Shown: piece by piece, positions 390-36,958 of the stretch
Layout of the letters: each line of letters opens with the position of its first letter
Numbering within the stretch: position 1 is the first letter of the stretch
Source of the DNA: a virus
Virus record (IMG/VR): IMGVR_UViG_3300009455_000001
DNA: 36,958 nucleotides
Reading direction: 5' to 3' (one strand)
Notes under the pieces: model-generated
What the model was told of the DNA's origin: nothing
Seen by the model: only the letters and a program-made list of their open reading frames with translations
The model's database searches: none
Program-made: the position numbers and the translations under genes

Positions 390-456
390 GTTTTCCTTCT
401 TTGTATTCCGCGCCGCCTACAACTCCCCTGTCTTGTGCGGGAGAATTGCAAACAAC
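390..456. repeat. Solo half-copy of the GC-clamped repeat module (CCGCGCCGCC...GCAAACAAC), directly upstream of ORF 33-386
   Basis: Aligns by eye with 36780-36840 (ttcttctgtctttccgccgccgcctacaat...attgcaaacaac). Its reverse complement aligns with 79-124. Confidence 0.7.
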
Positions 457-3088: not shown

Positions 3089-4303
3089 TTAAATCTGCTC
3101 TCGCCATACGAGCGCGCCATGAAAACTTTGAGGCGAAGCTGATAAATTTGTAATCGCTAGCGACAAAATATCCGAGGTTCCAGCTATATTTGCGCCTAAC
3201 CTAAGTGCGTCATCCAAGGGAAGAGAAATCCCATCCTGTGAATTGGAAACGTAACAGATATAACCTTGCGTTCCACCAGTAATAACGGTAGCCGCGACAT
3301 CGTATTCAATTGCGGAATTGGTTATCGAATTCCAGCTCGCCCCCGTCAATGTTGGGTTAACAAGCAGCCTCCAAGCGAAATTAGCAACTCCAGTCGTGAG
3401 CACAGAAACGAAAAGTGTGTTAATTGGAATATCTAAATGTGTTGATTTTTTCCTAATACTTAAAACTGGATAGATCGCCCCAGAGCCTATGGAAACGGCT
3501 ATTGAACGGTCTATTCCTGTAACCCGTCCAGCTGGGGTCTGACCACCCTCAGAAACAACACTAGAGCAGATCTGCACCAAGTTACTCGCGGCTCCGCTAC
3601 CATCGTTTACGATCTCATAGCGTAACGGAAGATTTGGATTGGACATATAAACCACATTAAGGCTATTAGCGTGGTTCATTTCGTGACAGTAAACGATTTC
3701 ACCGCCAATCACAAAACCGAATCGAACGCGTCCGACTCCAAGCCATTCAAAGTCTATGTAAAATACTTGAGTTTTGCTGGTATCAAGCGTAATCCCGCTT
3801 TTGCCTGTTCCATCAAGTTTGTCTAGGTTCCAATTAGATTGCGAAACCGATGAATCTACTGCGCTTCCGCTAGTGTACGTTCTGCGAGCCACACTCAAAA
3901 TTGAACCCGCAAGCTCGAAAAATAGTCCATTTTTCTCATCAAAATAGCCGATTCTACGTGTTATTCCTGCGGCTCCAGAGCCTAGCACTCCAGTCATTCT
4001 AATTAGCTGACTTTTCCCTGGTTGATATCCAAAACGCCTAAACGTCTGCCTAACTCTCGTTCCTGCCGCGCTTGCGCCGACTGATAGAGTTACGCTCGCT
4101 TGATTAGTGTTGTATGTTGAGCTTGTCCCAGCTCCGCTGGTTTGCTGGTCATCCCAAAATAACGGTTGAGCATCGTTGGTTAGTTTTGAATCAAACAAAG
4201 TTTCAGGCATGGAAACTCTTGCATAACCAAAAGCATCAACGCTCGCGCTGTCACCAAATTTAATTGATAGAGGATTAGGAATAGCCAAACCAGGGGCGAT
4301 CAT
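3089..4303 (-). CDS. Virion structural protein, beta-sandwich type; probable tail fibre / receptor-binding protein
   Basis: 404-aa ORF in the late operon; beta-rich sequence (FYIDFEWLGVGRVRFGFVIGGEIVYCHEMNHAN...LPLRYEIVNDG); function from position and composition only. Confidence 0.45.
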   Translation of the reverse strand: MIAPGLAIPNPLSIKFGDSASVDAFGYARVSMPETLFDSKLTNDAQPLFWDDQQTSGAGTSSTYNTNQASVTLSVGASAAGTRVRQTFRRFGYQPGKSQLIRMTGVLGSGAAGITRRIGYFDEKNGLFFELAGSILSVARRTYTSGSAVDSSVSQSNWNLDKLDGTGKSGITLDTSKTQVFYIDFEWLGVGRVRFGFVIGGEIVYCHEMNHANSLNVVYMSNPNLPLRYEIVNDGSGAASNLVQICSSVVSEGGQTPAGRVTGIDRSIAVSIGSGAIYPVLSIRKKSTHLDIPINTLFVSVLTTGVANFAWRLLVNPTLTGASWNSITNSAIEYDVAATVITGGTQGYICYVSNSQDGISLPLDDALRLGANIAGTSDILSLAITNLSASPQSFHGALVWREQI

Positions 4304-7002
4304 TCGTTGTACTCCCTGTTAATTTGAGAAACAATACGAGCGAATACTGCTGGTGATGTAGCTTTCTTCGCAGCGGATGAAAGCGTTCTTAACCGTTTCT
4401 CGGCCACCCCACGCTTTAATGCAGATTTTATTGCATCTTTCGCCTTCTCTGGCATCCCCTCCCACATCGCGCTCTGCCCTTTCATCGCTAAGTCTAAGTA
4501 GTCGTCTCCTGCTTTCATTTGAGTCTCAAACGCTTTCTTTAATTCTTCCCCTTGACCATAAGCTTTTTCTGCAATAATCTTTAGTCTGCTTTGCAGAGCC
4601 TTAGGAAACTCTTTTGGTAGTTCACCTTCACGCGCTAAATAGGCTACTCCGTAGGCCATCCTTTCTCGTGCCTCATCGTCCCATTCCTTCAAACCCATAG
4701 CCTTAACAAACGCTTTACGGTCGCTGTCTGGCAGTTTGTCCATGTAGTCTGCTGCGTGGTCAATTTCGTGTAATGCTGTTTCAAGGTCAGCTTCTTTACC
4801 AAACTCAATCCGTGCGCCTTTGTCTGTTTTTACGGTTGTTCCTTTGATAGTCGATTTGGATTTTTGGTATGCGATGTCTTTTGGGTTGTCCGATTTGCCT
4901 TCTGGTACCCTAGAAAGCTCTATAGATTTTTGATTTAGTAAATTAGCTCCATCTTCTCTCCCTAAATAATTAATCTTATTAGGTTTAATCTGTTCGCTGG
5001 ATGGTCGGTCAAAATAAGCACTTTTGGAATGCGGCGTAGGCGACGTCGTGATCGTCATCCCACCTTCTGTCCTGAAAACTTCATCTTCGTACAAATCCTC
5101 GTCTGGGTTGTGGTCTAGACCTGCTTTTCTGTCTAATTCTCTAGCGTTGCGATATGATTGTTCGTAATCTTTATTTCCTAGGTAGCCTTCTTTAGGAAAT
5201 GGAATTTCTGTATGAAACAATACATTCCCATTTTCGTCTAAAAGTTCTCCTTTGTCGTTTAGTTTAGTTTCAGGTTTAATTTCTTTGCGCTTTTTTGGCG
5301 GGAACGTTTCTGGGATAGGTTCTCCAGATTTAATTAATTCTAAAACTGCGTCATCGTTTGTCGGCTTTCCTCTTCTTTTTAAAAGCTCTTTGGCTCTCTC
5401 GAATTCTGGTGCTTTTTCATTTTTCCATTGTTTCCCCGTTTCGCCCCAATCTCTTTCTGGAAGCGATTCAAATGTTTGAACCTGGTCAAAGTCTTCGTTA
5501 CGTCCGCTTCTTCGGTAGTAAGCTCGTAGATCGGCAATTTCGTTTTCTGGTATACCTTTTTTTCGAAGGACATCGAATAATTGTTCGCGTTCAGCTACGC
5601 CTTTGCCTTGTATTCTTTTTCCCATCCAGTTTAAAAGCCTTGCTGTTGCAGGACTCTTCAACGCTGCATCCGCGACCATTCCTACAGCCGCCCCCTTTAC
5701 GCCTCCTAATACTCCCCCCAATCCTCCCGCCCATACATTACGGCTAGGAAGTACATTTTGACGGGCCTTTACTCCGTTTCGATATTTTACGGCATTTTTT
5801 ACGGCGATCAAACTATGAATGTCTTGATTTAATTCGTTCAATTCTCGCCTTGCTGTTGGGTTTTTAAAGGCTTCTTGAACTGCTTTTTCAATATGATCTC
5901 TTAAAACAGTAAAAGCTTTAGTGTAAACTTCTTTTGTTACTGTCGCGTTTGGGTCTATTCCCATCTTTTGGCCTACAGCTGCAAAAGCAGCTTCATCTCC
6001 CCAAGCTGATTTTATTTGTAAAGCGTCTGCAATGTTAACATGTCCAACGCGCCCATTTTTATCAATTAACGATCTGATTGACTCTTTTAAAGAATTTATC
6101 GCTTGTTCTGATTTTGCTTCTCTACCTAATGTCCCCTTTGCAAACGTTTCTTCAAGCGCATTATCTATACTTCTATTTAAATCAATTATCGGATTTTTTT
6201 TACCTGCTGATTTTAACATGTTTCTTGCTTTGTTTGTCAATTCTGCTATTTTATCGCTTAAAACTTCTTCCGCGTCTTCAGTTGCTCCGTGTATTCCATA
6301 TTTTTTTAGTGTCTCAATTTTGGCACCTTTTTTTAGGTCTTTAGACAAAAATCTTACATCGCTTTTCGTTATTGCATCGGATAAATTTGTGAATGGTTTA
6401 GCTGTTAATTCTCTTATTGCTGCAATCCCTTCTCTAATCGCTGGCCGTGCTGCGCCATAACCTTTTGCTGCTACTCCTAGTACACCAGAAGCTAATAATG
6501 TTGGGTCGCTAGCCGCGCTAGCAACAAATTCTCCTACCATCTCCCCTGTTTTCTGCCCAATATTTCCCATATATTTTGCTGATTCTTCTGGATTAGATTG
6601 CATACCTATTGGGGTTTGATACGCCATTCCTCGTCCGTAGGTTTCGCCAACCGCTCGTCCCATTTTTCCCAACGGCTCGGAAATAGGCTTAGCAAAACTG
6701 GTAAATTCTTTCGGGTCACCAATTTTTGATTCCTTATACCCAGCCATCCTATCGATTGCAACGGGCACGGCATTTCCGAGCACAGTAAGAGCAGCTAAAG
6801 GATCGCTTTTTTTTGCTAAGTCTGGATATCTTGGATCAACTTGACGAATCGGCTGACTCAAAGCTTGTTGAAGCTGGCCATACTGGCCTCTTATACCTTT
6901 TGGAATTGAGTTCTGCGTTGGCTGTGGTTTTATAACTCCATTTTCAATCGCTTCTTGTTCTTCAAGTTCTAAGAGTTCAAGTTCTTCCGCTTCTGTTAAC
7001 AT
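4300..7002 (-). CDS. Large (900 aa) probable internal virion / ejection protein with a C-terminal HExxH zincin motif
   Basis: Long ORF with acidic coiled-coil N-terminus and Gly-rich hydrophobic segment; ALHEIDHAADY (HEIDH encoded at 4756-4770). Confidence 0.5.
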   Translation of the reverse strand: MLTEAEELELLELEEQEAIENGVIKPQPTQNSIPKGIRGQYGQLQQALSQPIRQVDPRYPDLAKKSDPLAALTVLGNAVPVAIDRMAGYKESKIGDPKEFTSFAKPISEPLGKMGRAVGETYGRGMAYQTPIGMQSNPEESAKYMGNIGQKTGEMVGEFVASAASDPTLLASGVLGVAAKGYGAARPAIREGIAAIRELTAKPFTNLSDAITKSDVRFLSKDLKKGAKIETLKKYGIHGATEDAEEVLSDKIAELTNKARNMLKSAGKKNPIIDLNRSIDNALEETFAKGTLGREAKSEQAINSLKESIRSLIDKNGRVGHVNIADALQIKSAWGDEAAFAAVGQKMGIDPNATVTKEVYTKAFTVLRDHIEKAVQEAFKNPTARRELNELNQDIHSLIAVKNAVKYRNGVKARQNVLPSRNVWAGGLGGVLGGVKGAAVGMVADAALKSPATARLLNWMGKRIQGKGVAEREQLFDVLRKKGIPENEIADLRAYYRRSGRNEDFDQVQTFESLPERDWGETGKQWKNEKAPEFERAKELLKRRGKPTNDDAVLELIKSGEPIPETFPPKKRKEIKPETKLNDKGELLDENGNVLFHTEIPFPKEGYLGNKDYEQSYRNARELDRKAGLDHNPDEDLYEDEVFRTEGGMTITTSPTPHSKSAYFDRPSSEQIKPNKINYLGREDGANLLNQKSIELSRVPEGKSDNPKDIAYQKSKSTIKGTTVKTDKGARIEFGKEADLETALHEIDHAADYMDKLPDSDRKAFVKAMGLKEWDDEARERMAYGVAYLAREGELPKEFPKALQSRLKIIAEKAYGQGEELKKAFETQMKAGDDYLDLAMKGQSAMWEGMPEKAKDAIKSALKRGVAEKRLRTLSSAAKKATSPAVFARIVSQINREYNE

Positions 7003-24518: not shown

Positions 24519-24521
24519 TAT

Positions 24522-24749
24522 TTAATATTTTTTGATTTTTTCCGCAAGAGCTTTATTCCTATCCTTTAATTGCTCTACAGGAAGATATTCAATATCATCT
24601 ACGCTATATCTTGGCGGCCTGTTAAGCGGAATCGGTTTTCCTTCCATTGCGGCTTTCCTGTTGGAAGCAAAATCGCTCCATCGTTTTTTCGGTTTTGTAT
24701 CGTCTGTTTTTTGTCTTCTATCGGAGAAGATTCGATTTATATTGTTCAT
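24522..24749 (-). CDS. Hypothetical basic protein, first gene of the leftward late operon
   Basis: 75-aa ORF. Confidence 0.45.
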   Translation of the reverse strand: MNNINRIFSDRRQKTDDTKPKKRWSDFASNRKAAMEGKPIPLNRPPRYSVDDIEYLPVEQLKDRNKALAEKIKKY

Positions 24750-24997
24750 TTTTCTAATTTATTTTGATTTGATTCTTTTTTTTGTCTCATTTTTGTAACG
24801 CATTGATAGAATTTTTCTAAAAACGCCATGTTTGTAACAATTGTGTAATCCACACTAAAATTAGTTTCGAGTTAGCAACTATTAGACTATATTTATAACA
24901 TGAAGATGCCTCAATGTTGGGGTGGAAGAAAGGAAATGAAATGAAGAGCAACATGATTGATTACTTGAGGAAAAATATGAGGGAAAAGGAGTAAAAA
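24750..24997. promoter_or_regulatory. Divergent intergenic control region between the leftward late operon and the rightward small-ORF operon
   Basis: 248-nt AT-rich gap; two minus-oriented GTTACAAA motifs (24792-24799, 24831-24838). Confidence 0.4.
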
Positions 24998-25141
24998 ATG
25001 AATATAAATTTTAAAAAATGCCCAACCTGTGGGGCACAGTCAAAACTAATACGAGGGGTTTGTAAAAAATGCGATGAGTATTTCCTGAAATTAAGGCTAA
25101 AATCTGAAGAAACGGCCTTATTAAAGAAAGAGGAAAAATGA
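24998..25141 (+). CDS. Small zinc-ribbon protein (47 aa)
   Basis: Below the ORF-track cutoff; AAGGAG RBS 6 nt upstream; CPTC...CKKC; stop overlaps the next ATG (ATGA). Confidence 0.55.
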   Translation: MNINFKKCPTCGAQSKLIRGVCKKCDEYFLKLRLKSEETALLKKEEK

Positions 25142-25404
25142 TAAATTTAATGCTGGTATGTTCATTGACATACGAGCAGGCTCTAGCGGTAATATTTTTT
25201 TTACGAAAAAAGAAACGAGAAACCCGTAGGGCAACTGATCAAAAAAAAACAATGAATAGTCATAATATCCGCGCGTTTTTCTCAATGCCTATCACGCAAG
25301 AAATGAGAGATTTATTTCATAGTCTCATTGATTCAGATATTCAAGCTTTAAAGGATAATATTCTTTCCAGAAAGGGGGAAAATGAAATACTCGATGGTTA
25401 TTAA
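25138..25404 (+). CDS. Hypothetical protein
   Basis: 88-aa ORF, ATGA-coupled to the upstream ORF. Confidence 0.45.
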   Translation: MINLMLVCSLTYEQALAVIFFLRKKKRETRRATDQKKTMNSHNIRAFFSMPITQEMRDLFHSLIDSDIQALKDNILSRKGENEILDGY

Positions 25405-25597
25405 AAATTCTCATGGGGGCGAAAATATCTTGAGAATAAGTCTCAATAAATCAAAAAAAGTCGCAACCTCAGAAAATATTGCTATCTCATCGATAGTTTG
25501 CGGTTGCGGTTGCAAACTTGATTTTTTTCATGAAAAAAAACCGATTGCCAATATTTTTATGATAGCAAATTCATTCGTTTACGAGGTGCCGTCGTGA
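25382..25597 (+). CDS. Hypothetical protein
   Basis: 71-aa ORF; GGGGGAAAATG RBS. Confidence 0.45.
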   Translation: MKYSMVIKNSHGGENILRISLNKSKKVATSENIAISSIVCGCGCKLDFFHEKKPIANIFMIANSFVYEVPS

Positions 25598-25782
25598 AAT
25601 ATATCACTGTTTCGGAAAAAGCAAAAGAACTAGCAATTTCTGCCCAATTAGTTAGGAGATGGGCAAAACTTGCCCGATGGGAAAACTGCCAAAAGTTCGG
25701 GTCGTCGTGGTTAATCCCAGCTGGCGCAATTCCAAAAAAGAAATTTTCAAGGAAAGCAGGCAAACGCGAGGGGGGAAAATGA
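25594..25782 (+). CDS. Helix-turn-helix DNA-binding protein (excisionase/MerR-like HTH_17 type)
   Basis: 62 aa; MKYITVSEKAKELAISAQLVRRWAK...W.I pattern. Confidence 0.6.
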   Translation: MKYITVSEKAKELAISAQLVRRWAKLARWENCQKFGSSWLIPAGAIPKKKFSRKAGKREGGK

Positions 25783-25979: not shown

Positions 25980-26618
25980 TCACCAGACTTCACGGCTGGC
26001 TAAATGCGAATTTCTAATTTTTTCCTGAATTTTCTTTATTCTTAGCCTTGCTCCTTCTTTGGATATTCCATTTTGCTCACCGATCTCGCTGAGCGTTCGT
26101 TTCTCTACTCCAATTCCAAAAAACTGCTTTAGATGTAGTTTTTCATTCGATGTTAGATTTTTAAGCAACAACTCTACATCTAACCCCAAATCGTCTTCTA
26201 TCTCATTTTCTGCAAATTTAGATTCCCCATCGCCCCATTCTATATTTTCTGTTTTTCTTGCATTTTTCAGCATATTCATGCTTTCTTTATTATTCTTTGA
26301 AGCCTTCGAAAAAGCACTCATCGCTATTTGAGCTGGCAGCTTGACAGTCGTATCGCTCTGAATATATCGCATAATTCTAGCGCGAATATGCCAAATTGCG
26401 TACGTTATGAAGGATACTCCAATATTTGAATTAAATTTTAGAGCGGCTGCACAGATAGCTATTTTCCCCTCGGAAACGCAATCTTTTATATTGCTGCTGT
26501 TCGCATATTTTCGCGAAACATTCCACAAATGCCCTTCGTTTGCTTTTATTATTTGTCCAAGAATTTTGGAGCATTTTGTTTTTTGATATTCGCAAACCAT
26601 TTCGTTAATTTGATTCAT
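25980..26618 (-). CDS. Phage-encoded sigma-70 family RNA polymerase sigma factor (regions 2 and 4)
   Basis: 212 aa; region 2-like SEGKIAICAAALKFNSNIGVSFITYAIWHIRARIMRYI and region 4 HTH TLSEIGEQNGISKEGARLRIKKIQEKIR. Confidence 0.8.
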   Translation of the reverse strand: MNQINEMVCEYQKTKCSKILGQIIKANEGHLWNVSRKYANSSNIKDCVSEGKIAICAAALKFNSNIGVSFITYAIWHIRARIMRYIQSDTTVKLPAQIAMSAFSKASKNNKESMNMLKNARKTENIEWGDGESKFAENEIEDDLGLDVELLLKNLTSNEKLHLKQFFGIGVEKRTLSEIGEQNGISKEGARLRIKKIQEKIRNSHLASREVW

Positions 26619-27024
26619 TTTTTATTTCCTTTATTTTTAGTTGATAATATTCGATTAGCTGCTTTTGATTGACTCTTCCTAATTTCGACGTATTAAGCAA
26701 TATTTCAGCGATCCCCTCTCCAAACTTATTATTTATTGCGCGCCCATGCTCGTATTGTTTCCCTGATAAAAACCTGTTGCATTTCTTGCATTGAGCGTTC
26801 GCGTTTCTTTCGTCCCATCTGGTGGTTATTTTATTCCTGCTAATAAAGTGACCACAATCACAATTGTTATAAACGATTACTTTATCACACGTAATGCAAC
26901 GCCCATATCCATTTCTTGTGTCTCGAAGGCGTATATATTCGCTGAAAAGTCTGTCAAGTTTATTTTTTAGGTAGTTTGATGAAACTTTTTTTATTTTCGG
27001 AATATTTTTCCATTGCCAGTTCAT
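26605..27024 (-). CDS. ninG: NinG/Rap-like recombination protein
   Basis: 139 aa; LDRLFSEYIRLRD...CITC...CGHFISR...RWDERNANAQCKKCN matches the NinG family pattern. Confidence 0.7.
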   Translation of the reverse strand: MNWQWKNIPKIKKVSSNYLKNKLDRLFSEYIRLRDTRNGYGRCITCDKVIVYNNCDCGHFISRNKITTRWDERNANAQCKKCNRFLSGKQYEHGRAINNKFGEGIAEILLNTSKLGRVNQKQLIEYYQLKIKEIKNESN

Positions 27025-29327: not shown

Positions 29328-30196
29328 ATCCTTTCCGATTCTGCAAATGGAATTTCAATTTTTTGGCTAGTTATCTTTTGAACCAGTTTTAATTTGTTTT
29401 CTTCTTTCATCAAATCGTCGCGCACTTGACCAAAATGAATTGAAGCGAAGTTGTGCGGGTTTGCTCTCGTCAATCCAGGACGGACAAGGTCCCATCCGTG
29501 CCAAACAGCCCATATCGCGAATGGCGTCGCACCTATGTTTTCCAAGTCGCGTACAACCCTCCCCATTTCGCTTCCTCCTGGGCAAAAATTCCAGTAAACT
29601 TTGACTGCTTCCCAAATTTTATTTTTTTTAGTTTCTTTTTTTTGTCTTTCTGTCTTTGAAATTTCACCAGTCAACCCTTCGTCCGAATCTTGTTCGGACA
29701 AATCTTTCTTTACATTCTTTACATTCTTTACATTCTTGTTTGTGGTTAGTTGCTGGTTAGTTGCTGGTTGGCTGCTGGTTAGTTGTTGGTTGATTTGTTG
29801 GTTAGAATCTTCGTCTAATTGATACTTTTTCCATGAAATTATCGTAAAAATAGTATATTTGTTGGTTGATTTGCTGGTTAATTCGTTGGTTGATTTTAGC
29901 CTGTTTATGCACGTCCGTATCGATTGCTCTCCGATACCTGTTTCTAGGCTCATCGCATCTCTGCCAGAGACAAATTGGCCAGGCAATATTTCAATCCCCT
30001 GCCATTTTTTAGTAGCGTGGTTTGCTTTCATTAAGCAATATATCCAAAAATGCACCATGTTTGGAGTTTTGAACCACTCCCAATCTATTAAAGCTCTATG
30101 AAGCTTCAGCCATCCAGCATCAGACATCTGCAAATTTTCCAATTTGTTTTCTAAAAAACTCCATAATCTTAAATGAGTTTTCTTTTGTAAATTCAA
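29318..30196 (-). CDS. Replisome organiser / replication initiator (winged-helix N-terminal domain), contains the iteron array
   Basis: WLKLHRALIDWEWFKTPNMVHFWIYCLMKANH... typical of phage replication-initiator N-termini. TTG 30196 forms a TTGA overlap with the upstream small ORF; alternative ATG at 30127. Confidence 0.65.
   Translation of the reverse strand: MNLQKKTHLRLWSFLENKLENLQMSDAGWLKLHRALIDWEWFKTPNMVHFWIYCLMKANHATKKWQGIEILPGQFVSGRDAMSLETGIGEQSIRTCINRLKSTNELTSKSTNKYTIFTIISWKKYQLDEDSNQQINQQLTSSQPATNQQLTTNKNVKNVKNVKKDLSEQDSDEGLTGEISKTERQKKETKKNKIWEAVKVYWNFCPGGSEMGRVVRDLENIGATPFAIWAVWHGWDLVRPGLTRANPHNFASIHFGQVRDDLMKEENKLKLVQKITSQKIEIPFAESERIWK
29710..29893. repeat. Putative origin of replication: 3 x TTACATTCT (29710-29736), six tandem 11-12-bp iterons TTGNTGGTTAG (29739-29805), 52-nt AT-rich spacer, three more iterons (29858-29893)
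   Basis: Read directly; all iterons are in the same orientation inside the initiator gene, as with lambda ori inside gene O. Confidence 0.65.
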
Positions 30197-32388: not shown

Positions 32389-32723
32389 AGCATTCAGATT
32401 TCGATTTTGTGCTAGATATAATATTAGCGCAAATAAAGGTTTTACTTTCCAACAAAGCAAAAGAATACGCAAGCGATAGCGATAGATTCCATAATTTTGT
32501 AGAGGCAGCTAGACAGGATAATATTTCAGTTTTGGAAGCAATGAGGGGTATGGACTTGAAACATAGAATTTCAATTCATGATATTTTAGAGAGCGCTAAA
32601 GAGACGGGAAAATTACCAGAAATCGCCATTGCTAAAGAAAAATACATTGACCATATTAATTATATGCTATTAGAGCTTATTTATATATTAAATGAGAAAG
32701 AACAAGAAATCTTGTCTTTTTAA
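32385..32723 (+). CDS. All-helical protein, possibly DUF1599 / nucleotide-modification-associated type
   Basis: 112 aa; KAKEYASDSDRFHNF...MDLKHRISIHDIL loosely recalls the DUF1599 pattern (K..DYG...F.NF...K..R); weak. Confidence 0.35.
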   Translation: MKHSDFDFVLDIILAQIKVLLSNKAKEYASDSDRFHNFVEAARQDNISVLEAMRGMDLKHRISIHDILESAKETGKLPEIAIAKEKYIDHINYMLLELIYILNEKEQEILSF

Positions 32724-32812
32724 GTTGAATAAATTTTTTGTCGATTTGTTTGTCAATGAAGTGAGGTGTTAATATTTCATTTACTGATGAAGATAAAACG
32801 GAGAAACCGCCT

Positions 32813-33055
32813 TCAAAACCCAAATCCATTCCACCACAACCAGAAAAGAGAGAAAGGACATTTAATATTATCTTCCATAGTCATTAATGAAAGTGACTTA
32901 TGTACTTTACCATGTTCAATATTAGTAAACCAAATGCCCCCACTCAAATTTACTATTTCTTTGCCTTCGCTATTTATTTTAATATCCTTTTCTTTAAACG
33001 TGTGCCGTGTTACGACGTGGACAGCGTTGGAAAACGTGACGGAGTTTTGCGACAT
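32813..33055 (-). pseudogene. Internal fragment of an M.EcoRI-family adenine methyltransferase (gene remnant)
   Basis: INSEGKEIVNLSGGIWFTNIEHGKVHKSLSL parallels M.EcoRI IDSNGNRIISPNNCLWLTNLDVFIRHKDLPL as recalled from memory. No catalytic NPPF region or C-terminal part in any frame. Confidence 0.45.
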
Positions 33056-33067
33056 GACACGTTTTCT

Positions 33068-33376
33068 TCAAACGCTGGACATGTGCCCGTAGGGCGAGTG
33101 CTTTGTATACCTGCGCCAAGCAACTTCTATGAAGGCGAGTGGCCTACCTTTTTCACAAGAAGTACCATCTTTTTCGATAACAAAATCAAGGTCGTGTGAA
33201 TTACCGTATTTGTCAATCCATGAAACTTTCTTCCCTTCTCTCGCACTGCCTCGGTTTCCTTTTGAATCAAGATAGTAGTGGTGTTTTCTGCAAAACTCCG
33301 ATAGAATCGGTTTTACAATTTCTTCCAATAAATTACCGATGACCTGTCCGAAAAGATGTGACGGTGATTCTGCCAT
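33068..33376 (-). pseudogene. Truncated restriction-endonuclease-like ORF, partner of the upstream methyltransferase
   Basis: Starts 3 nt after the MTase stop. HDLDFVIEKD...AFIEVAWRRYTKH is PD-(D/E)XK-like. Only 102 aa, ends at TGA 33068-33070 and is in frame with ORF 32813-33055. Confidence 0.4.
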
Positions 33377-33379
33377 TAA

Positions 33380-34708
33380 TCATCCCCTAATCCAAAGTCG
33401 CCCTTCTTGTAAAGGAACTCGGTGTTTGCGGTTTTTCCATTTTATATTTCTATCTCTTATTTTATCAAAGTCGCAGGAAATAAATCCCGCATTAATGGCA
33501 AGGGCTGAAAACCATTTATCCGCTGGTGCATAGATTCCGTATGGTGCGGAATCGTCAATCACAAAACACATTAATGAATCTTTTTTCATGATTTTTCGCA
33601 ATGCAATGAATGTTTTGGCGATATCCAAATAATATGCTGCAATCATGGTGTGGTAAGTTTTTTTGCCACCTTTTGACAATCTAATTATGGAGAGTTCCTC
33701 ACATACAGAAGACAGTTCAGGTTTAATGGGGTCTATTTCTGGGGAGTTAAGTAGATTGTCAAGCGTAAGTCTTTCAGCCGCTGAATGTTGTGAACACGAA
33801 CGAATCAAATATTTACGGATTTTATCCTGCAAGCCAGCCCATCCATTGAGTTCTCCCCAAAAGAGAAGTTCAAGACGTGTTGCATCAGCATAATCATAAT
33901 TATTGGGGTAAGGTGGTGATGTGATTAATGCGTCAAATTCATAGCTTCCGAATGGTAATATTTCGCGTGCATCATGCTTAAGCAGAGTTGAATGGGTGTG
34001 GACAAACGAAGATTGAGCACAAAGCATGTCTTCTGACATTTGGTTAACTTTTAATGAAAATGCATCGAAAGCGTCAATGACATTACTCTTGGGTTTATTT
34101 GGTAAGATATATTGCCATTGGGCTGTTCCGGCTGTACTTGTGATTCTTAGGATACTTGTTATTGCAAGCCACAAAAGTTCAAATTCTGGAGAATCGTCAT
34201 TGTACTTAAAAAATGCGTCACGAAGAGATTCTAATTTTGATAAATTCTCAAGAGTATAGCATTTGGAAAGTAGTGGGACCGCTTTTAATTTGGATTCAAC
34301 AGGATTCTTTTTGGCAAAATTGAGAAGTTTTATTGACAATTTGCAGAATAAATCAATATTGGCATTCCAGCGGAGTTTCGCAGTGGCGATTCTACTTACA
34401 AACGGATGCGATTCAAAACCAACGGAATTAATGCCAAGGGCGTCAGCACATACCAATACTGTTCCTGAACCAGCAAAAGGGTCGAGAACATAGCAAGAAC
34501 TGTTTAATTTCATTCGCCGCAAAGTTCTTTCAACCCATTCTGCCGAAAATCCTGCTGAATAACGATACCAACGATGAATTGGCAATTTCATATTGTCGGT
34601 AAAAGTGCCTTCGCGCTCTCTAACCAACTCGGGGGCCTCATTTTTGGTTTCGTCGGGTAAAAGCAAAGGCAAAGTTGTCTGGTATGCTACGCTCAAAAGT
34701 ATCTCCAA
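33380..34708 (-). CDS. Type II DNA methyltransferase (N6-adenine or N4-cytosine), motif I before motif IV
   Basis: 442 aa; DPFAGSGT (AdoMet motif I) then, about 190 aa later, TSPPYPNNYDY (motif IV). TTG start at 34708, first ATG at 34591. Confidence 0.8.
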   Translation of the reverse strand: MEILLSVAYQTTLPLLLPDETKNEAPELVREREGTFTDNMKLPIHRWYRYSAGFSAEWVERTLRRMKLNSSCYVLDPFAGSGTVLVCADALGINSVGFESHPFVSRIATAKLRWNANIDLFCKLSIKLLNFAKKNPVESKLKAVPLLSKCYTLENLSKLESLRDAFFKYNDDSPEFELLWLAITSILRITSTAGTAQWQYILPNKPKSNVIDAFDAFSLKVNQMSEDMLCAQSSFVHTHSTLLKHDAREILPFGSYEFDALITSPPYPNNYDYADATRLELLFWGELNGWAGLQDKIRKYLIRSCSQHSAAERLTLDNLLNSPEIDPIKPELSSVCEELSIIRLSKGGKKTYHTMIAAYYLDIAKTFIALRKIMKKDSLMCFVIDDSAPYGIYAPADKWFSALAINAGFISCDFDKIRDRNIKWKNRKHRVPLQEGRLWIRG

Positions 34709-34818
34709 GTCGTTGATTTTTATAGCCTATTACTCATTTCAGCAAATATGCTTCATAAAATACCTAATTGAACGGGTAAAATCCTCATACTATTTTACAC
34801 CGCCGCCTCTTTGTTTTG

Positions 34819-35048
34819 AACGGGGGCTGTCTTCGTCTTTTTCATGCTCTTTTCTTTCTCCCCGCCGCCGACTATAATCCATTCTTGCCCGGTTTATTGC
34901 GCCTAACGTCGTGGCCAACAGTTGATCGTGCGGCTTTGCGCATGTCAACTTTGGCCTGTTGTTTGTCTGTATGTAAAGCACCTACTACAGCTACTGTTCT
35001 TCGGCGGCGGTTTTTTTGTATTTCTTCCCTGGCATTCCAGCCCCCGTT
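34819..35048. repeat. 230-bp nested palindromic element with perfect 11-bp terminal inverted repeats (MITE-like), copy A
   Basis: AACGGGGGCTG 34819-34829 / CAGCCCCCGTT 35038-35048; CCGCCGCCG 34862-34870 / CGGCGGCGG 35002-35010 followed by T7; central hairpin 34913-34956. Confidence 0.8.
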
Positions 35049-35068
35049 TCGCCTTTTTTTATGCAGTT

Positions 35069-35803
35069 TTATTTGGTTGAGGAATTAAATATTACAAGGC
35101 TATTCCAATCAATACGACCACTATCGTCACAAAAAGTATTTGCAAATTCTTTTGTGAATTTATTAATCATTTGTGAGTATGACTCAAGAAAAGCTTCATT
35201 TTTTTCTTTTGCTTTATAACCAAGCGGTTCAATGATCTCAGTGTATAATGTGGAATTACCAGAAATAAATTCCCAAAATTTCTACCCACAATATTTAAAG
35301 TACTCACCTTTGTCTGGCTTATTATCACGACCATAACAACAACCATTTACTGCAAAAATATTTAATTGTGAATTACTAGTCCTAAGAGCCTTTTTTGCTG
35401 TCTTAAAGTCACTTTTCATTTTAGCTATTTGGGAGCTGTTCCCCCAATTTGGTCCAGACTTAATTGTTACAATATTCCTTACTTTATCATTATCGAATTC
35501 AAGGTCAATACCAGTAATTCCAGATTTCCGCCCCCCAAACACTTTCCCATTAATAAAAATCGAAAGGCCTTCAAGCCAATCCCCAAAAATGCCCTCTTCA
35601 CTGGATGAAATATGAGCGTCAACCAAACTTTTAATGATTTGCTCAGCAGTAAGAACATATTTGGCTTTAAACAAGTATGGATTTTTTCGTTTTAGAACCT
35701 GTTTTAATTTTAAACCGTCAAGGCTTTGAATCCTTTTTTTATGAAAAGTTCCGATATTTTCTTCAACGTACAGCGTAACGTCTTTTAGGTTTAGGTTTTT
35801 CAT
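35069..35803 (-). pseudogene. Eco47II/PmeII-like type II restriction endonuclease interrupted by an in-frame TAG (35282-35284)
   Basis: RKNPYLFKAK, SSSEEGIFGDWLEGL, GIDLEF and IKSGPNWGNSSQ motifs. After the TAG the same frame stays open for 70 codons (KFWEFISGNSTLYTEIIEPLG...) to TAA 35069-35071. Confidence 0.6.
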
Positions 35804-36641
35804 ATTTTCCTTTTGGTTCGAGAAGGTAGAGTTCCACTGGTGGTAATTGACTTTTAACAATATCATAGTAATCTTTGACAATGTCTATACCTATTGAGTT
35901 ACGGCGCATTCTATTTGCTACAACCAAAGTTGTTCCTGAACCCATAAAGGGGTCTAAAACGATATCGTTTTCTTTGGTAAACAACTTAATAAACCATTCA
36001 GGAAGTTCTGCAGGAAACGCTGCACTATGGTTTTTATTGCTACATTCAGTAGCTAAATGAAGAACATTTGCTGGGTATGCTTTATCTCTTGCCAGCCAAT
36101 TTGAAATGTTTTTACCAAACCCACTCCCAACTTTGGAGTTATCGCGTGTTTTATCTGTTTCGCTCAGATTTTTTAAACGAGTTTTTGCCCAATCTCCCAT
36201 GGGTACCATGACATTTTCTTGGTACATATTAAAACTTTTTGATTTATTGAACTGAAGGAGACGTTCCCAAGCATCACGGAATCTATTTGGCCATTTTCCT
36301 GGGTAGCAGTTTTTTTTATGCCAGATGAATTCTTCTGTCCAAAGCCACCCTTGTTTTCGCATTTCTAAAATTAATTCCATGACATAAGTACTACGCTCAC
36401 CGTTCACTACCTTTTCTTTTATGTTTAAAATGAATGTGCCACTTGGCTTTAAAACACGAAGTAACTGCTGTGTTATTGGAAGAAACCATGAGACATAGCT
36501 ATCTGGATGTATTCCTCCATAAGTCCCTTTTCTTTGGTCTGCATAAGGTGGTGAAGTAACTATTAGGTCTACAGAATCAGTAGGAATTTTAAGAAGCTCT
36601 ACCTTGCTGTCTCCCAAATAAATATCTGTTTTAATTTCCAT
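35763..36641 (-). CDS. Type II DNA methyltransferase, beta-class amino-MTase (motif IV before motif I)
   Basis: 292 aa; TSPPYADQRK near the N-terminus, DPFMGSGTT near the C-terminus; GAAGG RBS; 3' end overlaps the endonuclease start. Confidence 0.85.
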   Translation of the reverse strand: MEIKTDIYLGDSKVELLKIPTDSVDLIVTSPPYADQRKGTYGGIHPDSYVSWFLPITQQLLRVLKPSGTFILNIKEKVVNGERSTYVMELILEMRKQGWLWTEEFIWHKKNCYPGKWPNRFRDAWERLLQFNKSKSFNMYQENVMVPMGDWAKTRLKNLSETDKTRDNSKVGSGFGKNISNWLARDKAYPANVLHLATECSNKNHSAAFPAELPEWFIKLFTKENDIVLDPFMGSGTTLVVANRMRRNSIGIDIVKDYYDIVKSQLPPVELYLLEPKGKYEKPKPKRRYAVR

Positions 36642-36733: not shown

Positions 36734-36747
36734 GACTCTTTCCTTTT

Positions 36748-36958
36748 AACGGGGGCTGTCTTCCATTTTTCTATTGTTTTTTTCTTCTGTCTTTCCGCCG
36801 CCGCCTACAATTTCCTTGTGCTTTACATATTGCAAACAACGGTTCGGCGCATGTATGCTGAAATTGCCTATAAGCAACTTCCACAAAGACTGCAATTTTT
36901 GCATACTGCGCCTGTTGTTTGCTGTTCTCCCGCACATTCCTTAGTTTTCTGCGGCGCG
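36748..36958. repeat. Copy B of the GC-clamped palindromic element (continues to about nt 131 after wrap-around)
   Basis: AACGGGGGCTGTCTTC 36748-36763 shared with copy A. CCGCCGCCGCC 36795-36805 pairs with GCGGCGCGG (116-124). Core hairpin 36832-36867 / 36892-36922. Confidence 0.75.
36836..36958. repeat. Terminal direct repeat, copy 2 (identical to 1-123)
   Basis: Read directly. Confidence 0.95.

Follow-up and report, generated by a model that had tools for sequence, protein, structure and literature searches.

The 230-bp palindrome of a tailed-phage genome: a putative junction between two mobile gene cassettes, with relatives in a bacterial defence-gene array

Introduction

MITEs, which are miniature transposable elements with inverted repeats, and mobile insertion cassettes, exemplified by the Correia and ERIC elements and by MIC231, are non-coding, palindromic, intergenic and repeated, and a mobile insertion cassette has inverted-repeat ends around passenger genes and no transposase. 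These traits recur in the subject of this study, a 230-bp palindrome (positions 34819–35048, referred to as element A) in IMG/VR virus record IMGVR_UViG_3300009455_000001, whose 36,958 nucleotides were analysed at full length (the window). Unlike MITEs and mobile insertion cassettes, the locus shows no target-site duplications, its ends co-vary between cassettes, and its units meet at a hairpin bounded by AAC and GTT.

The PeSL (promoter early stem-loop) cassettes of T4-type phages are also repeated intergenic motifs with stem-loops rich in G+C, and they border accessory genes where phage genomes are plastic (Arbiol et al. 2010, PMC2839356); they have been proposed to mediate cassette shuffling and mini-circle formation (PMC2839356). 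They are, however, short promoter-plus-terminator units of one phage lineage that rely on homologous recombination (PMC2839356), whereas the elements described here are 230–400 bp long, have ends that co-vary per cassette, and belong to a family shared with a bacterial contig. No promoter-like hexamer pair of the PeSL type is conserved among our copies; a candidate promoter, TTCAAA-17-TAAAAT (34820–34792), is present in A only, with a weaker version in copy B. A Bacteroidetes-type or sigma-70 promoter within the left cassette end was likewise considered and rejected, as it is not conserved.

Cassette arrays with attC-like sites are already known in phages: attC clusters without an integrase, some with N6_N4 methyltransferase cassettes, have been described and recombine with IntI1 (Qi et al. 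2023, PMC9892861). The window resembles integron arrays and clusters of attC sites lacking integrases (CALINs) in having co-oriented cassettes with an imperfect hairpin site, bordered by AAC and GTT, between one cassette and the next, and in its cargo of DNA methyltransferases, restriction-modification (R-M) systems and defence systems, carried here by a phage without an integrase.

In the current work, we show the architecture of the array, in which each cassette is a conserved unit whose two ends are coupled, and that the junction elements recur in an unrelated bacterial defence-gene array. Element A is probably a recombination site; our preferred, though tentative, explanation is that the palindrome is the junction of two adjacent mobile gene cassettes in a short array on the phage genome.

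Matched ends within each cassette

The window is a complete circular tailed-phage genome of ~36.8 kb, with terminase, portal and head genes present and a 123-nt terminal overlap (positions 1–123 equal 36836–36958, a circularly closed assembly). Nearly all of its genes lie on the minus strand. Along the gene direction, the order is lysis genes, element C, a Cys-rich open reading frame (ORF), element B, M1 and R1, element A, and then M2 and the remnants of R2, where M and R denote methyltransferase and restriction genes. The three related elements (C, B and A) are co-oriented and fall inside 2.4 kb spanning the circular junction. We number the Cys-rich ORF as cassette 0, M1–R1 as cassette 1 and M2–R2 as cassette 2. 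The search for relatives yielded five elements, all on three metagenome contigs of the Joint Genome Institute (L179, L181 and L264), which brings the total to eight elements in two lineages.

A full element, read on the gene-sense strand, is composed of a right-end (RE) half, a variable apex hairpin and a left-end (LE) half. The RE half runs AACGGGGGCTG, ~28 nt of purine-rich sequence, CCGCCGCCG, ~20 nt, and then GTGCTTTACAT, ACAG and CAAACAAC (the R-box). The apex is a variable hairpin of 50–240 nt closing in (G)GAAC. The LE half runs GTTGTTTG (again an R-box), CAAT, ATGTAAAGCAC, ~14 nt and CGGCGGCGG (the G+C clamp), followed by ~30 nt of purine-rich sequence, CAGCCCCCGTT and CAAAACAAAGAGGCGGCG. 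In the window these parts are located as follows.

34819–34907, minus strand: element A, LE of cassette 2 (nhmmer U3, 34909–34798, E 1e-24); inner part with R-box GTTAGGC (34901–34907), a cassette-specific block and clamp CGGCGGCGG (34862–34871); outer part with a purine-rich spacer and outer arm CAGCCCCCGTT (34819–34829); an additional GGCGGCGG at 34799–34807.
34908–34957: variable apex hairpin of element A between the two cassette ends, compared with the attC sequences of the PMC9892861 supplement; plus strand GTCGT, GGCCAA-C-AGTTGA-T-CGTGCG, loop GCTTTG, CGCATG-TCAACT-TTGGCC-T.
34958–35048, minus strand: element A, RE of cassette 1 (U5, E 2e-19); outer part with arm AACGGGGGCTG (35038–35048), an A-rich spacer (its A7 is the T7 at 35011–35017) and clamp CCGCCGCCG (35001–35010); inner part with the 11-nt block GTGCTTTACAT (34971–34981), ACAGA and R-box CAAACAAC (34958–34965).
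36748–36840, minus strand: LE of cassette 1, the 3' half of copy B (U3, E 5e-26); R-box GTTGTTTG (36833–36840), CAAT, ATGTAAAGCAC (36818–36828) and G+C clamp (36795–36805); outer part with a purine-rich spacer, then CAGCCCCCGTT (36748–36758).
36841–36913: apex hairpin of copy B; stem GGCGCA(T)GTATGC with GCATAC-TGCGCC.
36914–36958, equal to 79–124 and running on to ~140, minus strand: RE of cassette 0 (U5, 148–74, E 1e-8); R-box CAAACAAC (36914–36921, equal to 79–86), variant block GTGCGGGAGA (91–100) and variant clamp CCGCGCCGC (116–124), with no outer arm.
407–456, minus strand: LE of cassette 0, copy C (U3, E 0.048); reads GTTGTTTG-CAAT-TCTCCCGCAC-N19-GGCGGCGCGG, its variant block and clamp being those also seen in the RE at 79–124; a ribosome-binding site and the ATG of the Cys-rich ORF follow directly.

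How these ends pair is the decisive result. The conserved blocks of LE and RE are Watson–Crick complementary at 28/28, 28/28 and 27/27 positions in three cassettes. In a fourth (cT, the type I R-M cassette of the metagenome contigs), direct reading gives 27/27, with the 11-nt block in register (TGTTTAAATTT/AAATTTAAACA). Across the actual junctions, by comparison, 17 of 28 positions pair in A, 17 of 28 in B and 9 of 28 in L181b. The R-boxes of LE and RE pair in all four cassettes (8/8, 8/8, 8/8 and 7/7), and three more blocks are complementary; in cassette 1 all four blocks of the LE are perfectly complementary to the RE at 34958–35048. Variants are carried at both ends alike: cassette 0 has TCTCCCGCAC, GCGGCGCGG and no outer arm, cassette 1 and the helicase cassette (see below) have ATGTAAAGCAC and CGGCGGCGG, and for the type I R-M cassette they are GTTGCAG, AAATTTAAACA and an outer arm shorter by 2 nt. 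Judged by these alignments, the block variants match across the genes and not across the hairpin. It had also been predicted beforehand that the cassette starting GTTGCAG-..-AAATTTAAACA ends with the complement, and this was borne out 8.5 kb downstream on a separately retrieved contig, L264.

Because the matching occurs within cassettes and not across junctions, element A reads as a composite of two cassettes' ends, namely the RE of the M1–R1 cassette (34958–35048), a variable hairpin and the LE of the M2–R2 cassette (34819–34907). The partner of its right half, 34958–35048, lies at 36748–36840, and the inner blocks of A do not pair; its two outer stems pair because those two blocks happen to be identical in both cassettes. 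The spacers between the blocks of each end are purine-rich and non-pairing.

The hairpin between the two ends has fixed borders: all five full junction sites carry AAC towards the RE and GTT towards the LE. The stems beside these borders vary yet stay paired (GGCCAA/TTGGCC, GGCGCA/TGCGCC, GCGGTA/TACCGC). The stem of A is 18 bp long with two bulged bases 6 bp apart (34913–34956), and that of B, of unlike sequence, occupies the same position beside the AAC/GTT boxes. The core lengths between boxes are 66 nt in A, 89 nt in B, 126 nt in L181b and ~256 nt in L179.

Matched inverted ends are also what tandem non-autonomous transposons (mobile insertion cassettes) would have: units with long terminal inverted repeats (TIRs) set end to end, served by a transposase elsewhere, with leftover target DNA as the apex. 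Consistent with this, LE and RE of each cassette form inverted repeats of ~60–115 nt in several blocks, no transposase lies within the cassettes, and the inverted repeat of L181 reaches ~35 nt past GTTGTTTG. We nevertheless consider this explanation unlikely. Direct reading found no convincing target-site duplication, and transposase-bound ends are normally family-wide, whereas here each cassette has ends that vary together. At both ends the purine-rich strand of the spacers is the same one, so that the ends are not true mirror images. Transposition also leaves unexplained the AAC/GTT-bounded hairpin, whose stem keeps pairing while its sequence changes. A DNA inversion switch was rejected as well: the homology of A's 3' half to other left ends holds in place, and nothing is inverted.

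Fold and nature of the palindrome

A sequence-only reading had first described the palindrome, as a MITE-like or structured-RNA element with an intrinsic terminator as a further option. Its anatomy stands. On the plus strand, AACGGGGGCTG (34819–34829) is the exact reverse complement of CAGCCCCCGTT (35038–35048), giving an 11-bp TIR; the inner arms CCGCCGCCGA (34862–34871) and TCGGCGGCGG (35001–35010) pair, with T7 directly after (35011–35017); and the central hairpin (34913–34956) comes to 18 bp with two single-base bulges, where ~17 bp had been given. The fold comparison that it called for was run with dinucleotide shuffles, and 34800–35060 is more stable than shuffled sequence on both strands. 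The minimum free energy is -78 kcal/mol on the plus strand (z -4.40; 0/200 shuffles as good) and -75.4 on the minus strand (z -3.65; 1/200 as good). A lone 11-nt inverted repeat is not rare: there are 8 perfect ones within 300 nt in the window against a shuffle mean of 4.4 and maximum of 15, and a nested inverted-repeat pair arose by chance 30 times in 200 dinucleotide shuffles. The case for a real feature therefore rests on fold energy, G+C-rich arms and homologous copies, and with these the 230-bp palindrome is confirmed as real.

The element had been placed in a 360-nt gap between a restriction gene and the next methyltransferase gene, and this gap (34709–35068) obtains only when the restriction gene is read through the TAG at 35282–35284. 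The 63-codon ORF drawn over part of the palindrome (34790–34981) exists, and upstream of a common EDSPR stretch its frame differs from that of the sister copy, element B, which begins at 36736 and crosses the circular junction. Protein-level conservation of a spanning ORF, which would have spoken against the element, was not seen, as no ORF across it is conserved in frame. A protein-coding small ORF was rejected because the frame is not kept, and a search of the translated element sequence against a protein collection found nothing. The proposal of a non-coding, repeated element tied to mobile DNA is upheld by the copies in its own genome and on unrelated metagenome contigs.

The two mobile-element and terminator options fared less well. 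A classical MITE would be a 230-bp non-autonomous transposon with 11-bp TIRs inserted between R1 and M2. The perfect TIRs, the fold-back body, the size, the non-coding character and the related sequence elsewhere all agree with this, and MITEs shared between virus and host are documented (PMC11602168). We regard it as very unlikely, since a self-contained unit is contradicted at several points. There is no target-site duplication, the flanks ...TTTTG|AACGG and CCGTT|TCGCC having no direct repeat, and conservation runs 18 nt past the 'terminus' (CAAAACAAAGAGGCGGCG). Copy B is without the left terminal repeat (the outer 5' arm), and there is no second copy with the same two halves. The halves belong to different cassettes and match the distal ends of their own. 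Further true copies were not found in the viral and genome pattern scans (among the matches listed), in blastn of phage and plasmid collections, or in 105 related loci.

A one-way plus-strand intrinsic terminator, blocking antisense transcription into the early genes, fits A and B loosely: on that strand the G+C clamp leads into U-rich tracts (CGGCGGCGG-U7 in A, GCGGCGCGG-UCUUUUUU in B), and a small, weak terminator-like hairpin, the sole one that a terminator scan picked out, is conserved (34820–34836 and 36751–36764). However, the clamp encloses a 129-nt multi-branched 'loop', the small hairpin depends on G.U pairs, and the tracts past the clamp in L179 and L181b are less U-rich and non-contiguous. 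Such a terminator would leave both the matched cassette ends and the occurrence in another genome unexplained, and we judge it extremely improbable. The classical MITE and the plus-strand terminator each explain part of copy A only.

The structured RNA is not supported by Rfam either. The cmscan run against Rfam 15 gave no match at gathering score in the whole window, and 34600–35200 at the E-value threshold (E <= 10) gave noise only (11–19 bits, E > 2); ARAGORN found no tRNA or tmRNA. More specifically, the LE, in the 5' untranslated region, and the RE, in the 3' untranslated region, could pair in RNA as a processing or stabilising stalk of the kind that flanks rRNA; we find this quite unlikely. 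The companion proposal, that the junction hairpin is an insulator or weak terminator between cassettes, seems to us equally so. Every copy is indeed in gene orientation, the sense strand is purine-rich in both spacers, the fold is significantly stable, and a 2x2 mismatch (CAAT vs ACAG) is conserved within the LE–RE pairing in 3/4 cassettes. Against an RNA-level role, no Rfam family appeared even at E <= 10. Among paired and mismatched LE–RE positions on the sense strand, G.U occurs 0 times and A.C 7 times, and the count of 0 G.U in ~110 conserved pairs is telling, as perfect Watson–Crick pairing is unusual for RNA stems so diverged. In L179 and L181b the outer stem has decayed with no compensating changes, and B lacks it. 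Moreover, the ~85% nucleotide identity of the ends between phage and unrelated contig would need DNA exchange anyway. Retron RNA, reRNA and bridge RNA were rejected, there being no cognate gene nearby, as was a Frpo-type single-stranded DNA promoter, given a tailed double-stranded DNA phage and no -35/-10 pair in the stem.

Relatives on metagenome contigs

Contigs L179 and L181 came from one metagenome scan, and L264 was added by protein look-up. By tblastx, the window and these contigs have no genes in common. Their elements nonetheless share ~77–86% identity with the phage copies over 70–110 nt, and ~72% over 135 nt for the RE half (cassette 1 RE against L181 3619–3747). Elements occur only at the borders of gene cassettes and always in gene orientation (C, B and A in the window; L181a, L181b, L179 and L264c). 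Those of L181 and L264 separate three gene sets, all in gene orientation: the first encodes a 291-aa protein and a UvrD-like helicase, the second, of 8.5 kb, encodes a DUF4145 protein, a type I R-M system and a reverse transcriptase, and the third holds further genes.

The search for further copies that the sequence-only reading suggested was answered in part: relatives came from the metagenome scan, none from the phage and plasmid collections, and no target-site duplications were found. Thus, blastn of element A and of the LE against those collections returned nothing, and an exact 16-mer scan of viral contigs gave only chance matches in coding regions. The pattern GGCGGCGG...CAGCCCCCGTT in genomes and viral contigs yielded, among the matches listed, high-G+C chance matches only, and GTGCTTTACATA..CAAACAAC yielded none in viral contigs. 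With nhmmer, no such element was detected at 105 loci around related proteins (25 relatives of M1 and 80 of a 261-aa protein). M2 and a 319-aa protein have no relatives in the viral contigs.

Several features of the contigs deserve mention in their own right. The ~291-aa protein and the ~790-aa UvrD-like helicase (L181 3786–7039; L265–L267 7120–10355) form a conserved two-gene module that is found at unrelated chromosomal sites in many bacteria. The best PADLOC similarity of the helicase is to GajB, and its partner is without a match; the pair may be an uncharacterised defence system. Homologues of the helicase system in other genomes are without the elements. In L264 4100–10000, a nucleotidyltransferase/substrate-binding pair sits between hsdM and hsdS of the type I R-M system, the next gene encodes a reverse transcriptase of 517 aa (RVT_1), and everything lies within one matched pair of cassette ends. 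The apex of L179 (1640–1830) bears a ~240-nt, G+C-rich, strongly folding insert. Since ACGTCGAAGACTCCG is common to this insert and to one within the RE of L264c (L264 10185–10210), the junction elements seem to be mosaics of smaller repeated modules.

Comparison with attC sites

The likeness to integron attC sites extends to detail. In both, a cassette opens with bases complementary to its own distal box, and the hairpin is variable in sequence and conserved in structure, with bulged bases 6 bp apart. The attC hairpin measures ~57–141 nt, and the cores of A, B and L181b (66–126 nt) fit this size, i.e. 3/4 sites. On the plus strand, site A reads GCCTAAC-5 nt-6 bp-C-6 bp-T-6 bp-loop-...-GTTGTTT, which is the layout (box, spacer, 6 bp, bulge, 6 bp, bulge, stem) of the aadA7 and TJE1_attC2 attC sites; the hairpin of copy B contains a single bulge at 6 bp from the base of its stem. 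The canonical box GCCTAAC/GTTAGGC is present in site A at 34901–34907. The IMG/VR phage contig L010 carries one of the closest relatives of M1 found (86% aa identity), 100 nt downstream of a 54-nt site (2848–2901) that has a 24-nt exact core, AAACGGCATTAAAACGACCGTTTA, in common with the published Polaribacter phage site P12002L_attC1. In L010, the R1 homologue is likewise disrupted, through a short tandem duplication (3776–4365), and start codons have TAnnTTTG motifs ahead of them, which suggests a Bacteroidota host.

Having raised the likeness, we would note several points that weigh against a junction of integron type. First, the boxes are mostly CAAACAAC/GTTGTTTG, as opposed to the RYYYAAC/GTTRRRY of attC sites; these boxes, CTGCAAC/GTTGCAG and the partner of A's canonical box are off the consensus at 2/4 degenerate positions. 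Second, the complementarity within a cassette spans ~100 nt in four blocks instead of the 6–7 nt of integrons, and cassettes of 1.9–8.5 kb with matched ends of ~100 nt are unlike known integron cassettes. Third, the arm carrying the bulged bases is the one by which canonical attC sites mark the strand opposite to the genes, and the loop beside the boxes is asymmetric here (1 nt vs 4–5 nt). Fourth, a home-made covariance model built from 5 published attC sites did not detect A, B or L181b at E <= 10 (they fall below ~10 bits), a model of such low power that a near-copy of a published phage attC scores just 15 bits. Fifth, neither the window nor the readable parts of the contigs yielded an integrase or other recombinase, and with no integrase in the window the array is at most a CALIN. 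Finally, no circular or empty-site form was seen, and the crossover point is drawn from few comparisons (eight elements, two lineages).

Two comparisons converge on one position. From the RE, A and L181b stay homologous for 28 nt into the apex, and LE homology ends at (G)AAC|GTT, which together would put the exchange point at the apex–LE border, (G)AAC|GTT.

Proposed mechanism and significance

The seam elements suggest an integron-like cassette-swapping system. We infer that each cassette moves as one unit, probably by way of an intermediate that is circular and/or single-stranded, in which the RE, apex and LE of one cassette would zip into a long hairpin with an attC-like tip. A host recombinase acting in trans, similar to an integron integrase, might then cross over beside this hairpin at the AAC|GTT border. 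The array would be a phage-borne, CALIN-like cluster, through which the phage could have acquired methyltransferases protecting its own DNA, the linked restriction genes being knocked out later.

A further possibility, which we hold to be doubtful, is that this is a mobile-cassette system not described before, with cassettes of 0.4–8.5 kb, self-complementary ends of ~100 nt, a giant attC-like hairpin and a dedicated recombinase (not necessarily IntI) that exchanges cassettes between bacterial defence islands and phages. If so, the cassettes would carry mostly defence and anti-defence genes, and the 230-bp palindrome would be one hybrid site. What appears new is the long, co-varying cassette ends, whole defence systems as cassettes, and one junction family in both a phage and a bacterial defence array.

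These observations touch on two open questions: by what route defence and anti-defence genes pass between bacteria and phages, and how cassettes of the integron type originate. Here, a phage and an unrelated bacterial defence array have the same junction elements and no genes in common, and the matched pair of ends marks each cassette as the unit of transfer. Should a recombinase act on these sites, phages would have a direct route for capturing whole R-M and defence systems of up to 8.5 kb, and could then retain the protective methyltransferases and lose the restriction genes. The rule of matched ends is a simple, testable signature for finding more arrays.

Cassette cargo and other features of the window

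The cargo genes of the phage array are the following, all on the minus strand.

33–386: Cys-rich ORF (112–117 aa), cargo of cassette 0.
35763–36641: M1, N6_N4 DNA methyltransferase, cargo of cassette 1.
35069–35881: R1, type II restriction gene of the EcoO109I family, cargo of cassette 1 (PF14511, E 3e-76).
33380–34708: M2, 442-aa type II DNA methyltransferase, cargo of cassette 2 (PDLC03306, E 4e-113).
32677–33376: R2, type II restriction gene remnants, cargo of cassette 2 (PDLC03525, E 2e-35, matching the N-terminal 94 of 288 positions).

R1 is interrupted by an in-frame TAG at 35282–35284, after codon 199, with 70 further in-frame codons beyond it, and R2 by an in-frame TGA at 33068–33070, after codon 102, with a frameshift further on. 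Both restriction genes are thus inactivated, while the phage retains two intact methyltransferases. No RE was found beyond R2, i.e. the far end of cassette 2 is missing. The Cys-rich ORF weakly resembles the DnaJ CXXCXGXG zinc finger (PF00684, E 0.002, short of the family cut-off). Exact matches to five window proteins came solely from two contigs of the same phage.

A cos/pac site or an origin was also considered for the palindrome and rejected, the element being away from the terminase genes and iteron-like repeats lying elsewhere. These tandem repeats of 11–12 nt, of the GTTGCTGGTTA type, are found at 29738–29892 within a 292-aa ORF just upstream of the primase-helicase gene, and suggest a replication origin within an initiator gene. 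Upstream of the small terminase gene, 24519–25650 is an A+T-rich region of ~1.1 kb (33% G+C) in which the G/C skew is reversed and ORFs of 90 aa or more are absent. Just ahead of the packaging genes, 25980–27024 encodes a phage-borne sigma factor of the sigma-70 family (r2/r4) adjoining a NinG/Rap-like endonuclease.

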